A DNA stretch of 64,000 nt from Thermotogota bacterium (GCA_030550515.1 JAUQPE010000018.1:3927-67926), one strand, 5' to 3'. Shown: positions 3,139 through 64,000, counted from the first letter of the stretch. Numbers and translations: made by a program. The notes: generated by a model not told the origin, from the sequence alone.

Positions 3139-3234
3139 GCGTTGATTTCTTGCTTTTCCGTAATTCTACATCCAAAACCCTTTCGGAGCAAGTTTCGTGC
3201 GTTGGATCGGTCACTTTTTTGTCCTTCGGGTTTG

Positions 3235-3271
3235 GCCAAAACAAACAAGGCCGGGATCGAATCCCGGCCTT
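3235..3271 (-). terminator. intrinsic terminator (minus strand) downstream of the mini-array
   Basis: 11-bp GC-rich stem AAGGCCGGGAT/ATCCCGGCCTT (3247-3271) followed on the minus strand by UUGUUUGUUUU (3246-3235). Confidence 0.5.
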
Positions 3272-3279
3272 CGCGTTTC

Positions 3280-3386
3280 GTTCCACTACCTCTAAGGTTC
3301 GATTGAAAAAGGAGAGCCTACGTCTAAAAATACGTGAAGTTGAAACTAAAAGTTATATCTCCATACCTTGTAGGTTCGATTGAGAT
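3280..3386. CRISPR. degenerate two-repeat mini-array (repeat-spacer-repeat) of the same repeat family as the main array
   Basis: 3280-3309 matches GTTTCCATACCTCTAAGGTTCGATTGAAAC at 26/30 and 3357-3386 at 23/30 (core TCTAAGGTTCGATTGA conserved); 47-bp unique segment between them. Confidence 0.6.
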
Positions 3387-3398
3387 CTTGTTGATCCA

Positions 3399-3428
3399 AT
3401 CATAACATTTGAAAACGAGACTTGTCAA
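3399..3428 (-). promoter_or_regulatory. sigma70-like promoter reading leftwards into the mini-array
   Basis: minus-strand TTGACA (3428-3423), 18-nt spacer, TATGAT (3404-3399); predicted TSS ~3392, 6 nt before the first repeat. Confidence 0.45.
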
Positions 3429-3457
3429 GAGGGTTTGGCAAGGTGAATTCATCTTTT

Positions 3458-4009
3458 TCAAAACGTGATACGGTTCTTACCGTGCGTCGCCATCCTGTAT
3501 TCCCAATCCACCAAGGAAAAGAACCATTCGTCGAGAGAATTCGAATAGAACTCGAGCCAGAACTTTCCCCAAACGTCTTCTTCGTGCCCCTTCAGGAGGA
3601 TCCTTCCCAAAAACGTTAGCTCGACGGTTCCTCTCCTCTCTCGGGCGACCTTTTCTATCTCTTCCTTTGAGAGTTTTTCGTACACCCTTTCCACCACGAT
3701 CAACGTCCTTTTCCCATCGCGGATACCCGCGTTTTTGATCTCTTCGATGGCTTTCGCGAGGTTCACCATAAACTTTGGAATCGAGCGATCTTCGCCGATT
3801 TCTAAGACGGCTTCGGGGAACTTCTCCGCGATCTTTTGTGCCGTTTTGGCACCGACTGGATCTCCTTTCGATATTCGAGCGATAACGGAAGGGCTTACTC
3901 CCAAAACCTCAGCCAATTTCACCCTGCTGGGATGGCAGGAGTACCTGTGAAAGGGCTGAAGGAGCCTCCTGTAATCGACATAGTACTTTGCTTTTCCCAT
4001 TTGGCGCAC
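3458..4009 (-). CDS. HTH-domain protein (putative transcriptional regulator)
   Basis: 183-aa ORF with helix-turn-helix-like segment LAEVLGVSPSVIARISKG; no terminator between its stop and the mini-array. Confidence 0.4.
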   Translation of the reverse strand: MRQMGKAKYYVDYRRLLQPFHRYSCHPSRVKLAEVLGVSPSVIARISKGDPVGAKTAQKIAEKFPEAVLEIGEDRSIPKFMVNLAKAIEEIKNAGIRDGKRTLIVVERVYEKLSKEEIEKVARERRGTVELTFLGRILLKGHEEDVWGKFWLEFYSNSLDEWFFSLVDWEYRMATHGKNRITF

Positions 4010-4037: not shown

Positions 4038-4955
4038 TTACCACAGATAAGGATGGCGGGAAAAACCTCCCTCGTAAAACAGTTCTAGACTGGGAAGAGA
4101 ACTTGTGGAAAGGACGTATTCCTCCGTGAGGTTTGGGGCTGGTTCACCGTCGTACGAATAAACACAGAATTTCTCTATCGTGAGTTTTCCGAAAGAGAAG
4201 ATCCCAAAACACATCCCTTGATGCGCGCGAGTGGTGTTCAACCCTGGACCTATGAAAAGCGCCACGAGTTTCCCTTCGGAAAAGACGCGCACGACACCGT
4301 CGAACACTTCTACCAACAGGGAAAATTTCTGCCCCGCACGAAACCCCTTACCAGTCTTCCCCCTTCCCGCCATCTGCGTCCCCAGGAGCGACACAACTCC
4401 ATCCGCAACGTTGAATTCCACCATTGCGTAAGAATAATCGCTGAAACCATCTTGCCTCAGCAACACCCCTGGGCCACCCTGGGTAGCGTAGAAGATTCCC
4501 ATCGTGTCCGAAAAGGAAGTGAAAACGACTTCTATCCCCGTTAGTTCGTTTCCGTTCTGAGAGTCAAGCCAAGCGGCACAAAAAGGTTTCGCATCAGGTT
4601 CCAGCGTGAGTTTTCCCTCAGAGATCTGCGCTTTTCCGACGACTTTGAAAGGGTTTGCTTGAAAATAAGGGTAAAGTTGGAGCACGGAGGAGACTGGAGC
4701 AGGTTTCCCGAGGTATACGTAACCCTTATCTTCCTCTTTCACGATAACCGCGCCGAAACATGGCAAATGCGAGATGCGACGTGTCACGACAAATGGTCCA
4801 GAAACCACTCTCCCTTGCTCATCGAGCAGGTACTGGGTTAGCTTCAAATGAAACGACTTCTGGCTCGAGCTCGCGTCGTTTATCGAAGGCCCGCACGAGA
4901 AAAGTAAGATTGAGACCACAAAAACGAACGCAATTAGACAGCGCGTCCCCAACAC
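4038..4955 (-). CDS. lipoprotein of unknown function
   Basis: GTG start at 4955 preceded by GAGGGA RBS gives n-region/h-region/lipobox (LGTRCLIAFVFVVSILLFSC); ORF-track N-terminus upstream is probably not translated. Confidence 0.45.
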   Translation of the reverse strand: MLGTRCLIAFVFVVSILLFSCGPSINDASSSQKSFHLKLTQYLLDEQGRVVSGPFVVTRRISHLPCFGAVIVKEEDKGYVYLGKPAPVSSVLQLYPYFQANPFKVVGKAQISEGKLTLEPDAKPFCAAWLDSQNGNELTGIEVVFTSFSDTMGIFYATQGGPGVLLRQDGFSDYSYAMVEFNVADGVVSLLGTQMAGRGKTGKGFRAGQKFSLLVEVFDGVVRVFSEGKLVALFIGPGLNTTRAHQGMCFGIFSFGKLTIEKFCVYSYDGEPAPNLTEEYVLSTSSLPSLELFYEGGFSRHPYLW

Positions 4956-4990
4956 GGCTCGATCCCTCGAGATCGGAATAGAATAAACAG

Positions 4991-5010
4991 AAAAGGGGCG
5001 TTGAGCCCCG
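4991..5010 (-). terminator. intrinsic terminator of the tRNA-Val/tRNA-Phe transcript
   Basis: minus-strand hairpin GGGGCtcaacGCCCC (5009-4995) followed by UUUUCUGUUUAUU. Confidence 0.45.
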
Positions 5011-5051
5011 TCTCGTTGTGGTGAAAAACTGACGTACCGAGGATCGACCTC

Positions 5052-5127
5052 TGGTGGCCAGGGGCGGAATCGAACCGCCGACACCTGGATTTTCAGTCCA
5101 GTGCTCTACCAACTGAGCTACCTGGCC
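5052..5127 (-). tRNA. tRNA-Phe (anticodon GAA)
   Basis: cloverleaf folds by hand: acceptor GGCCAGG/CCTGGCC, anticodon stem CTGGA/TCCAG with loop CTGAAAA, T-loop TTCGATT, CCA encoded. Confidence 0.85.
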
Positions 5128-5140
5128 ACTCCTTTCGATC

Positions 5141-5215
5141 TGGTGGGAGCGGCAGGACTTGAACCTACGACCTCCTGCTTGTAAGGCAGGCGCTCTTCCC
5201 CTGAGCTACGCTCCC
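5141..5215 (-). tRNA. tRNA-Val (anticodon TAC)
   Basis: acceptor GGGAGCG/CGCTCCC, anticodon stem CCTGC/GCAGG with loop CTTACAA, T-loop TTCAAGT, CCA encoded. Confidence 0.8.
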
Positions 5216-51832: not shown

Positions 51833-51859
51833 TAGTTTAGGAAAAACTATGGTGTTCTC

Positions 51860-52004
51860 TCCCCAGGGGGAGCTCCTGACACCGGGGCTGAGAGGAGGGC
51901 GGAAGCCCTCGACCCCTCGAACCTGATCCGGGTAATACCGGCGGAGGGAATGGGGAGAGAAAAGAAGAGATCCCTCCGCCTGAAGCGGAGGGAAATTTTT
52001 TTGT
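51860..52004 (+). promoter_or_regulatory. TPP (THI-box) riboswitch with terminator expression platform
   Basis: GGGGCTGAGA…GAACCTGATCCGGGTAATACCGGCGGAGGGAA aptamer consensus; terminator CCCTCCGC-ctgaa-GCGGAGGG + AAATTTTTTT (51971-52004) competes with aptamer 3' strand. Confidence 0.85.
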
Positions 52005-60541: not shown

Positions 60542-63500
60542 GTTTCCATACCTCTAAGGTTCGATTGAAACGATCGAGCGAACACTTGAAATAACCAAAA
60601 AAGCTGGCATTTCCATACCTCTAAGGTTCGATTGAAACTGATGAAACTGAGCGATGTCGCAGAAGAGTTCGCAAAGATCGCGGGTTTCCATACCTCTAAG
60701 GTTCGATTGAAACTCGTTTCGACCGAAGAATTTCTTTCCATTCTCAATGCTTTCCATACCTCTAAGGTTCGATTGAAACCCAGCTTGAAGCGCTCGTCAG
60801 AAGAAGGCTGCTCCGCTTTCCATACCTCTAAGGTTCGATTGAAACTAGGGGTTATTGCGGCGGCGCATAAAAGTCAAATCACTTTCCATACCTCTAAGGT
60901 TCGATTGAAACCGTTGCCAGTTACCTCTTTTTATATGGAAAACCTTAGTTTCCATACCTCTAAGGTTCGATTGAAACTACGAATTGGAAAACGGAATCAT
61001 AATCTCAATACACGTTTCCATACCTCTAAGGTTCGATTGAAACTAAGAATGGACCAAACTTCTCAAAAAAAGATTATTGTTTCCATACCTCTAAGGTTCG
61101 ATTGAAACCCTCAGTCCTTCGAAAGCATCGCCCATGTGTCCTTGTTTCCATACCTCTAAGGTTCGATTGAAACCATTTTTCGGGGCCTCTGGTACCCCCC
61201 GGAAGACCCGTTTCCATACCTCTAAGGTTCGATTGAAACCGCGTGGTGGTGTCAAGAGAGCCTTCAGGAAATTCGCGTTTCCATACCTCTAAGGTTCGAT
61301 TGAAACTTGGAATAGACGCGTTTGTGCTTGTGCTGGTGTTTCAGTTTCCATACCTCTAAGGTTCGATTGAAACGAAATTGAGTGACTTGTTCATAAGAGA
61401 GATCGAGCTGTTTCCATACCTCTAAGGTTCGATTGAAACGCAAAACGAATCATCCTGTTGACTTGTCGTACATAAGTTTCCATACCTCTAAGGTTCGATT
61501 GAAACATAAAAAAAAGAAAAAATAATATCTTTTTTCTAAGCGCGCGTTTCCATACCTCTAAGGTTCGATTGAAACTGGGGCATTTTTGGGCGCGTTTTTG
61601 ACACAAAAAAGAGGTTTCCATACCTCTAAGGTTCGATTGAAACCCTTCCGCGGGCGCGGGGGGAGTACTACTACTTCATGTTTCCATACCTCTAAGGTTC
61701 GATTGAAACGCTATGATGGGAGGCGAAAGGGGGTGAAGAGAATGAGTTTCCATACCTCTAAGGTTCGATTGAAACTACTTAGTTGGGCACGAAGAGTTGC
61801 TATGTCTTCTTTGTTTCCATACCTCTAAGGTTCGATTGAAACGGTTAGACCCAGCATATCAGAAAAGAGTAATATTCGAGTTTCCATACCTCTAAGGTTC
61901 GATTGAAACGAGACGTTCGATACGATATGCCCCTCGCTTCTCGGCGGTTTCCATACCTCTAAGGTTCGATTGAAACTAGGCTTTACAACAACGCCCCCGT
62001 GCTCATAGATGGTTTCCATACCTCTAAGGTTCGATTGAAACTTCCGCGGACCCCCTCTTGCGCTCCTACCATTTTAGGTTTCCATACCTCTAAGGTTCGA
62101 TTGAAACCGCGCTTTCACACGCGCTTTCGCGCGCTTTCTCGCAGTTTCCATACCTCTAAGGTTCGATTGAAACCACGCGAGCGCGCGCGAACGCTGATGA
62201 GACGCGAAGTTTCCATACCTCTAAGGTTCGATTGAAACCAAGTTGGATCCGAGCTTTCAAAAAAAAGTGATATTGTTTCCATACCTCTAAGGTTCGATTG
62301 AAACTTTCCTTAACGTATTCTTTAAATAAATCCTCTTCCGTGTTTCCATACCTCTAAGGTTCGATTGAAACTCTACGTTTGCTTCTAACCTCGTTGCTTA
62401 TCTTCAGTTTCCATACCTCTAAGGTTCGATTGAAACCGCCATCTCGCGAAAGAAAAGGCCCGCATACGACATGGTTTCCATACCTCTAAGGTTCGATTGA
62501 AACTGACGCCTCCGATCCTCGTCAGTCCCAAGCGGGCGCGTTTCCATACCTCTAAGGTTCGATTGAAACCGATCATCATGTCTGGCAGGCCGCCGTAGCT
62601 TTCTCGTTTCCATACCTCTAAGGTTCGATTGAAACCACAAAGCGCGAGATTGTGAAAAAGGGAACAAAGTGGTTTCCATACCTCTAAGGTTCGATTGAAA
62701 CTCGTTTGGACGTCGAGGAACTCTTGCACGGAAAAGCGTTTCCATACCTCTAAGGTTCGATTGAAACGGTGAGGTCGTGGTGAGATTCTGCGCGTTCTGA
62801 AACACGTTTCCATACCTCTAAGGTTCGATTGAAACTCTCTCTCCACCACCCGCAGTAGGGGAACTTCACTCGTTTCCATACCTCTAAGGTTCGATTGAAA
62901 CGCTGAATCTAACATTTTTCGAACACGCTACCACCTCACGTTTCCATACCTCTAAGGTTCGATTGAAACGAAAAAAGGAACGAAGTGCGCGCGAAAGATT
63001 GTGAAGTTTCCATACCTCTAAGGTTCGATTGAAACAGAGATTCAAAAACATATACTCTTCGGAAACGAACCAAGTTTCCATACCTCTAAGGTTCGATTGA
63101 AACACAAAAATTCAGGGCGGCAAAATTAGCGGTGGGGTTGTTTCCATACCTCTAAGGTTCGATTGAAACCTTCTTCTTCTTCGTCGATTTCGAAATCATT
63201 TATTAGTTTCCATACCTCTAAGGTTCGATTGAAACAGAAGAAGGAACAATCAAAATCGTAGACTTCGAAATGTTTCCATACCTCTAAGGTTCGATTGAAA
63301 CTCAAAGCTCACCACCACATTTTCCAGCGTTTCTGCGTTTCCATACCTCTAAGGTTCGATTGAAACGCGGGCTGGGTTAAAGGCAGGACCTCAGGGCGGG
63401 ATACCTCGTTTCCATACCTCTAAGGTTCGATTGAAACAGATGAAGGAGGAAGACTCATGCACCAAGCGGTGCGAGTTTCCATACCTCTAAGGTTCGATTG

Positions 63501-64000
63501 AAACAACGCATGTGCAAGTTCGATCAGTTCGATGTCTTCTGTTTCCATACCTCTAAGGTTCGATTGAAACCCGCGTCGCATCTGCGTTCGCGTGCGCTCA
63601 TACGCGGTTTCCATACCTCTAAGGTTCGATTGAAACTCGCTATATACGTTCTGAAGTGATGCGAAAAGCAAAGTTTCCATACCTCTAAGGTTCGATTGAA
63701 ACCCTTTCACGTTGTAGAAATACACAGCGGACTTATAAGGTTTCCATACCTCTAAGGTTCGATTGAAACAAATCATTTTCGCACTTTGTGAAAATGTGAA
63801 AAAGCGTTTCCATACCTCTAAGGTTCGATTGAAACCTTGGAAAGAAGCTTCCAGATGTTTTCTCTTGTGATGCGTTTCCATACCTCTAAGGTTCGATTGA
63901 AACCGGCAAAAGGGAGCGACCGCGCCGTCGCTCCCGGAGTTGAGTTTCCATACCTCTAAGGTTCGATTGAAACTTGTTTTTGAGGCAAGGGCAACTCGGA
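60542..64000. CRISPR. CRISPR array, at least 52 x 30-bp repeats (GTTTCCATACCTCTAAGGTTCGATTGAAAC on + strand), truncated by the window end; transcribed strand uncertain
   Basis: 52 repeats counted by hand, spacers 34-45 bp and all different; repeat is near-identical to the reverse complement of the T. maritima repeat family; no cas genes in the window. Confidence 0.97.

Follow-up and report, generated by a model that had tools for sequence, protein, structure and literature searches.

A degenerate repeat-spacer-repeat unit with a CRISPR leader promoter, distant from cas genes, in a member of the Thermotogota

The window analyzed here is a stretch of 64,000 nucleotides from a Thermotogota bacterium (GCA_030550515.1, JAUQPE010000018.1:3927-67926). 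A short unit of promoter, repeat, spacer, repeat, and terminator lies on its minus strand, with an ABC exporter, an orphan helix-turn-helix (HTH) gene, and tRNA genes as neighbors. It is 57 kb from the main CRISPR array and csm locus, and no cas gene is nearby. The features are as follows.

3237-3271, minus strand: intrinsic terminator, an 11-bp stem (3271-3247) and then GUUUGUUUUG, from terminator scan and centroid fold
3280-3309, minus strand: psiR2, the terminal degenerate repeat, TTTTCAATCGAACCTTAGAGGTAGTGGAAC, 26/30 matches
3310-3356, minus strand: psiS, the single 47-nt spacer, ATAACTTTTAGTTTCAACTTCACGTATTTTTAGACGTAGGCTCTCCT, unique in the window
3357-3386, minus strand: psiR1, the leader-proximal degenerate repeat, ATCTCAATCGAACCTACAAGGTATGGAGAT, 23/30 matches, same predicted fold as the consensus
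3387-3450, minus strand: truncated CRISPR leader with promoter, from promoter scan and alignment to canonical leaders
3458-4000, minus strand: gene for an orphan HTH_3 protein of 180 aa (Pfam HTH_3, 9.3e-05), reading into the unit
60542-64000, minus strand: canonical array whose repeat and leader the unit copies, with its trailer end at 60542

The end of the HTH gene, at 3458, and the -35 element are separated by 30 nt. As the sequence-only reading of this DNA had stated, no terminator intervenes. The gene is a neighbor, not a demonstrated part of the unit. Its protein occurs in only two clusters among 5.8 billion proteins, and in its AlphaFold model (mean pLDDT 53.5) only the N-terminal HTH region is moderately confident. 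The link that had been drawn between this gene and the unit is not conserved, as the only diverged homologue (L003, 76% amino acid identity) loses homology at the stop codon. A candidate remnant of the unit 3' of that homologue was rejected, because it consists of only a 10-mer and a 9/11 match, which is chance level. Upstream of the HTH gene (4038-5084 and 5052-5215, both minus strand) are an ORFan without family match and, directly upstream of it, tRNA-Phe and tRNA-Val. The length of the ORFan varies by strain (348, 305, 242, or 169 aa), and the longest reading overlaps tRNA-Phe. An ABC operon lies 108 nt downstream of the unit, and the neighbors identified by Pfam are ordinary metabolic and transport genes. 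Elsewhere, the window holds a TPP riboswitch (51856-51967, plus strand; Rfam RF00059, 79 bits).

Within the Thermotogota, this lineage is poorly sampled. The unit is present in 7/7 strain-level contigs from several metagenomes, at 97-100% identity; hot-spring samples containing the strain include those of the studies behind SRR17794512, SRR21619488, and SRR27730012. One contig that is 99% identical to the window region belongs to a metagenome-assembled genome labeled Sulfolobales archaeon (L004; GCA_038887455.1, JAWAKN010000012.1); the Thermotoga-like synteny and sigma-70-type promoter of the region suggest that this label is a binning error. Databases hold no relatives at intermediate distance, and contig searches of reference genomes with the HTH and 12TM_1 proteins returned no synteny. 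The closest 12TM_1 homologue, 36% identical, is from Thermotoga sp. KOL6, in which the ABC_tran, 12TM_1, PfkB, and DUF1611 genes are syntenic. The unit is absent from the KOL6 site, where QueF and Vut_1 abut the ABC gene across a 6-nt gap, which makes the block around the unit lineage-specific.

The main array, with 52 repeats, extends from 60542 past the right end of the window. Its 30-nt repeat reads GTTTCCATACCTCTAAGGTTCGATTGAAAC on the plus strand. Two degenerate copies of this repeat had been described in the unit, and rechecked coordinates and counts agree: plus-strand positions 3280-3309 (GTTCCACTACCTCTAAGGTTCGATTGAAAA) match it at 26/30 positions and 3357-3386 (ATCTCCATACCTTGTAGGTTCGATTGAGAT) at 23/30. 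Because the best ungapped match in 56 kb of non-array window sequence, both strands included, reaches only 20/30, two such copies 77 nt apart are far beyond chance. The 16-nt core TCTAAGGTTCGATTGA, described as preserved in both, is kept in the 3280-3309 copy; in the 3357-3386 copy it is not, with 13/16 positions matching and GGTTCGATTGA intact. The repeats are spaced 77 nt start to start versus 65-70 nt in canonical arrays. The 47-nt segment between them has no second copy in the window, again as first read, and exceeds in length every one of the 954 collected canonical spacers, which measure 30-45 nt (mode 36). A hidden third repeat within this spacer (GTTTCAAC…TTAGACGTAGG) was considered and rejected, as 6.7% of shuffles and 35/957 real spacers score equally.

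Scans also recover the promoter and terminator that had been noted on the minus strand, an 11/12 sigma-70-type promoter and an 11-bp intrinsic terminator. The unit is thus self-contained in the order first described, with every part on the minus strand. The terminator stem (3271-3247) has 11 pairs, 7 of them G-C, and is followed by GTTTGTTTTG. It dominates the centroid fold of the unit transcript and makes up most of the z score of -2.1 for the whole predicted transcript, in which no convincing structure was found beyond the terminator. A search of Rfam with the unit returned no family, only sub-threshold matches driven by the terminator. Strains differ in the terminator loop (window 3255-3263; L002 and L005), which reads TTCGA or its reverse complement TCGAA above an unchanged stem, a hairpin-loop inversion polymorphism. 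Furthermore, an imperfect 18-nt direct repeat (14/18 matches; TTGTCCTTCGGGTTTGGC at 3219-3236 and TTGTCAAGAGGGTTTGGC at 3422-3439) flanks the whole unit from the -35 element to just beyond the terminator. It could mark the recombination that put the unit here or be due to chance, and it is within chance expectation for a 9-nt seed.

The direction in which crRNAs are read from this repeat had to be settled empirically, because both orientations of the repeat end in a plausible 8-nt tag. The leftmost repeats of the main array are mutated at plus-strand position 1, as had been observed. In contig L008, from a second strain, the 36 spacers at the left end of the main array are the same as in the window but those further right are not, indicating that the left end is the old, or trailer, end. 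A metagenome scan with the repeat core yielded about 60 array contigs, and all those that reach an array end carry a conserved leader with a sigma-70-type promoter 5' of the first repeat, in the orientation GTTTCAATCGAACCTTAGAGGTATGGAAAC; leaders with promoters lie on the right-hand side of more than 20 arrays. Shared trailer spacers, leader position, and csm and cas6 genes upstream in the same direction all bear out the earlier suggestion that crRNA sense is the minus strand, which is also the sense of the transcript predicted for the unit.

The canonical arrays are associated with two types of cas locus. The window's own array is found in another strain (L012), with a leader flank 99.6% identical to a region of L024 that follows a cas6-like gene (L024:12963-13553) and a type III-A operon. 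Its genes are cas10/csm1, whose product has HD and palm domains, csm2, three RAMP genes, and CARF genes. The csm1-5, cas6-like, and CARF genes are upstream of the leader, termed leader A, and in other strains the main array is directly 3' of the type III-A csm operon and cas6. In a contig from the same sample series (L074), cas4, cas1, cas8b (TM1802 family), cas7, cas5, and cas3 lie directly upstream of an identical leader and repeat. These loci show that one repeat and leader serve both type I-B and type III-A (csm) loci, and sharing of a repeat between I-B and III-A systems is common in Thermotogota.

Two further features were seen in the fetched contigs. A 1241-aa ORF with Rpb2_6, Rpb1_2, and Rpb1_5 RNA polymerase domains (L024:697-4422 and L044:42-1880, both plus strand) resembles a fused beta/beta' two-barrel polymerase. 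It is followed by a sigma54-type AAA+ protein and CARF proteins immediately 5' of the type III-A csm operon, and in a second lineage the same pair of polymerase-like and AAA+ proteins is also encoded next to an array. A solitary repeat, ATCTCAATCGAACCTTAGAGGTATCAATAA (GTTTC… in L080), occurs at L059:4513-4542, at L009:14277-14306, and in L080. It lies ∼130 nt 3' of a stand-alone cas6 that is itself located between an efflux ABC system and unrelated genes, and ∼10 nt before the Shine-Dalgarno sequence and start codon of a 112-aa ORF. It has the ATCTC 5' variant in common with psiR1.

The promoter of the unit consists of TTGACA at 3428-3423, an 18-nt spacer, and TATGAT at 3404-3399 with an upstream TG, giving the extended -10 element TGTTATGAT at 3407-3399. 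It matches 11/12 consensus positions, is the top-scoring site between 2000 and 6000, and has a predicted start site near 3392. This promoter is that of the CRISPR leader. Alignment shows that CTTGACA and the 12-mer AATGTTATGATT are identical between the unit and leader A of L024, L012, L069, L077, and others. Read across the leader-repeat junction, the canonical leader is …CCCCCAC TTGACA CACCCCCCTTTCCGAA TGTTATGAT TAATCCAGCAACTTATGG/GTTTCAATCG, and the unit is …AACCCTC TTGACA AGTCTCGTTTTCAAA TGTTATGAT TGGATCAACAAG/ATCTCAATCG. The 12-mer was found in 30/109 fetched loci, comprising 6 copies of the unit and 24 array contigs; in the latter it is at the leader end, 5' of the first repeat wherever the junction was read. 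About 65 nt of leader are left in the unit versus ∼188 nt in the canonical leader, and a 6-nt deletion has removed CTTATGG, the leader-repeat junction conserved across the two leader types.

The layout of the canonical arrays matches that of the unit, with a promoter close to the first repeat and a terminator after the last. Their last repeat is followed by a terminator hairpin or by a degenerate terminal repeat, and psiR2 is likewise degenerate in its 3' part. Given the shared leader promoter and the terminators that end canonical arrays, the anatomy of the unit is the normal anatomy of an array with a single spacer. The earlier picture of a stand-alone RNA gene therefore does not hold, as the promoter is homologous to the canonical leader promoter and canonical arrays are also terminator-ended; what had seemed an unusual RNA gene reduces to ordinary array architecture with one spacer. 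The unit has lost features tied to spacer uptake, as its repeats carry 7 and 4 mismatches and the CTTATGG junction is deleted. No spacer was gained in any strain contig compared. With the junction deleted, the first repeat mutated, and no gain in any strain, the unit can probably no longer acquire spacers.

Is such a unit maintained, or is it simply decaying? The -35 hexamer and extended -10 element are identical to the canonical leader at 15/15 positions. The other leader positions are identical at 29/48 without gaps or 29/58 with gaps counted as differences, or about 50-60%. The difference between promoter and remaining leader gives a Fisher p of 0.002 to 0.0002, in a test that is partly circular because the identical blocks anchor the alignment. 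The terminator stem is intact even in the strains with an inverted loop.

A second line of evidence comes from the fold of psiR1. By RNAfold, psiR1 and the consensus repeat share one predicted structure, in which a terminal stem of 5 bp surrounds an inner hairpin of 4 bp, ACCU-NNN-AGGU. Cas6 generally cuts 8 nt from the end of the repeat, and this expected position falls at the 3' base of the hairpin. Of the seven substitutions in psiR1, three are loop bases of the inner hairpin and the other four, G1A with C30U and U3C with A28G, convert G1-C30 to A-U and U3-A28 to C-G, such that every predicted pair is kept. In simulations of random seven-substitution sets, ∼1.2% keep all nine pairs and ∼0.15% do so with at least two compensated pairs, in a test that is post hoc and concerns a weak structure (-4.4 kcal/mol, z -0.67). 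The G-U intermediates of both compensated pairs are present among canonical repeats (…GGAAAT in 75 copies and …GGAGAC in 7), and C30G, which breaks pair 1-30, is also common there (46 copies). The only strain polymorphism within psiR1 (A16C) is at a loop base, and the strain variants, at 97-100% identity, are too close to show purifying selection on the unit versus its flanks. Taken together, these comparisons are suggestive of a unit that is maintained and not simply decaying. The compensated pairs also lead to a testable prediction, that the Cas6 of this lineage recognizes the terminal 5-bp stem and the inner 4-bp hairpin.

Both the repeats and the leader promoter of the unit have homologues in the canonical arrays. 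On balance, the unit is probably a minimal, degenerate CRISPR array, a paralogue of the canonical arrays with leader promoter, repeat, 47-nt spacer, repeat, and terminator, that would be transcribed and cut by Cas6 to give a frozen guide. Continued transcription and Cas6 processing to a single frozen guide are the most likely outcome. The leader promoter would drive synthesis of an RNA of ∼155 nt, and read-through from the HTH gene may contribute. Cas6 would cut each repeat at the 3' base of the ACCU-NNN-AGGU hairpin, at 3365/3364 in psiR1 and at 3288/3287 in psiR2. The predicted product is one 77-nt crRNA intermediate with the variant 5' tag AUGGAGAU, which could be loaded by Csm or by Cascade. 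Since such an array would be unable to take up spacers, its one guide would be frozen. Several points weigh against this minimal-array reading: 2/8 positions of the 5' tag differ from the canonical tag, which could impair loading; the 47-nt spacer is outside the canonical range of 30-45 nt; the spacer has no target in the sequence searched; and surveys judge mini-arrays near type III loci to be degraded and non-functional (PMC10120712). Moreover, something else could account for the persistence of the promoter, for example leaky read-through to the ABC operon.

A serious, if unlikely, alternative is that the unit is inert, a stump that remained when deletion or rearrangement removed an array, and that it decays neutrally, with any transcription being fortuitous and of no consequence. 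Degeneracy of both repeats, deletion of the leader-repeat junction, the aberrant spacer length, and the absence of a detected target all fit this explanation, as do the ordinary metabolic and transport neighbors without a cas gene among them. The length variants of the adjacent ORFan (348, 305, 242, and 169 aa) suggest a decaying region, nothing is present at the syntenic site of Thermotoga sp. KOL6, and Shmakov et al. reached the same conclusion for mini-arrays flanking type III loci (PMC10120712). Against neutral decay stand promoter hexamers and an extended -10 element retained without change within a leader that has diverged to about 50-60% identity, substitutions in psiR1 that all preserve structure, and a terminator stem that remains intact in strains with and without loop inversion.

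The function of any guide depends on its target. The sequence-only reading had proposed that the spacer could direct a Cas complex to a fixed site, as a regulatory RNA. This proposal gains no support, as psiS has no target above chance in anything searched. Within the window, its best match is an exact 12-mer (E = 0.12). Among 110 fetched loci (566 kb, both cas loci included), the best match, 23/35, equals that of shuffled queries. Seed scans of the III-A locus L024 and the I-B locus L074 found none above chance; the best case in the cas loci is a 12/15 match inside csm3, with 0.26 such matches expected per locus, and it extends only to 21/35. Likewise, seed-plus-PAM complementarity to a cas or toxin promoter does not exceed chance in the window, L024, or L074. 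Phage and plasmid collections gave only chance matches (E near 1), and IMG/VR, queried with three 20-24-mers, gave no target. The phage and plasmid negatives carry little weight, because the 52 canonical spacers of the main array, used as a control, also have 0 matches there; the mobile elements of this lineage are unsampled in these collections. In the fetched contigs, two canonical spacers, from the L082 and L090 arrays, match L018:63-98 and L092:831-864 at 35/36 and 34/34 positions. The matched sites are non-array DNA a few hundred bases past the trailers of further arrays, and are either self-targets or integrated elements beside arrays.

Two readings assign the guide a fixed role. The first, quite unlikely, is that of a maintained, cas-distal single-guide locus, in which a frozen, over-length guide with the variant tag AUGGAGAU, still expressed and open to Cas6 processing, would program the shared I-B or III-A machinery against one fixed target. 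That target could be a transcript or promoter of the host itself, or a persistent mobile element. If true, the unit would be a crRNA-like regulator located away from all cas loci, and it could be the first mini-array with a function to be linked to type III systems. The second, slightly more doubtful still, is that the unit encodes a regulatory crRNA-like RNA of the CreR/CreA type, whose guide brings I-B Cascade or Csm to a partially complementary host site and thereby represses a gene. The architecture of degenerate repeat, spacer, and degenerate repeat with its own promoter is the same (10.1101/2023.03.10.532045; PMC10120712), a type I-B system with the same repeat exists, and the unit shows signs of maintenance and is fixed in the population while canonical arrays turn over. 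Against a CreR/CreA-type role, the unit lies 57 kb from the nearest array, neither in nor beside a cas locus; seed-plus-extension matches in the window, L024, and L074 do not exceed chance; the cas genes follow one another closely, and at cas8b no gap bears a promoter; and no small toxin-like gene is adjacent.

It is very improbable that the unit is a decoy or RNA anti-CRISPR resembling Racrs, or a mini-array of a mobile element, with the HTH gene, ORFan, and unit as remains of an integrated element beside tRNA-Phe and tRNA-Val. Its RNA would then titrate Cas6 or effector subunits or target competing elements. This possibility draws on the orphan status of the HTH and 305/348-aa proteins, the flanking tRNA genes, the lack of the block in KOL6, the strong promoter, the 18-nt direct repeat that brackets the unit, and the precedent of Racrs and viral mini-arrays (PMC10651486; PMC10120712). 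However, the block has no integrase or other mobile-element hallmark and no anomaly in GC content or skew. PHROGs and PADLOC detect no phage or defense family in it apart from a weak HTH match, IMG/VR lacks the repeat core, and the direct repeat is no more than chance would give. Racrs are, in addition, solitary repeats, whereas the unit is repeat-spacer-repeat, driven by the host's own leader promoter. Finally, an anti-repeat, tracrRNA-like RNA pairing with every pre-crRNA repeat, the other option raised earlier, has nothing in its favor beyond near-palindromic repeat ends and a negligible probability, as crRNA sense is minus and the promoter and terminator of the unit are on that same strand, making its RNA the same sense as crRNAs and not complementary to the repeats.

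The closest comparison for the minimal-array reading is with the leader A arrays of the same organism, which share with the unit their repeat family, leader promoter, sense, and a terminator after the last repeat. The unit differs from them in having one spacer, of 47 rather than 30-45 nt, degenerate repeats (23/30 and 26/30), a leader of ∼65 nt with CTTATGG deleted, and no cas genes nearby. Listeria RliB is an orphan array expressed as a small RNA from a fixed, cas-distant chromosomal site; it differs in its several repeats and is found whether or not a strain has cas genes, whereas the unit has one spacer and coexists with complete I-B and III-A systems.

Degenerate-repeat mini-arrays are an already described class (PMC10120712; 10.1101/2023.03.10.532045). 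They are defined as two repeat-like sequences 15-60 bp apart (PMC10120712), as are found in the unit. Like CreR/CreA and the mini-arrays of Shmakov et al. (types I-B, I-E, I-F, and V-A), the unit has two divergent repeats, one spacer, and a dedicated promoter. The functional examples (CreA, CreR, and the I-F1 mini-array) lie within cas loci or adjacent to them, and carry spacers with partial matches, next to a PAM, to cas or toxin promoters (PMC10120712; 10.1101/2023.03.10.532045). The unit, in contrast, is 57 kb from the array, and psiS has no such target in the loci searched. Mini-arrays near type III loci, judged degraded and non-functional by Shmakov et al. (PMC10120712), resemble the unit in having a repeat used by type III systems and no detectable target. 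Those lie close to arrays, whereas the unit is distant and has an intact leader promoter, a terminator, and structure-preserving substitutions. Racrs, which are solitary repeats on mobile elements (PMC10651486), resemble it as repeat-like RNAs with their own strong promoter away from cas genes. Racrs are single-repeat RNAs of viruses, plasmids, or prophages, and the unit is a chromosomal repeat-spacer-repeat with a host leader promoter and no mobile hallmarks.

If the unit is a stump, it is an ordinary by-product of array turnover, and its value is for annotation, as CRISPR finders apply thresholds that arrays of two repeats do not reach. A maintained unit, at which the intact leader promoter and the structure-preserving substitutions hint, would extend crRNA-like guides to a locus remote from cas genes and to a repeat common to I-B and III-A systems, a setting in which surveys so far have dismissed mini-arrays as degraded. 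Among known systems, CRISPR arrays are the most suitable class for the unit, which would be a minimal, degenerate, cas-distal member that works like an array rather than as a demonstrated regulator of the CreR type.
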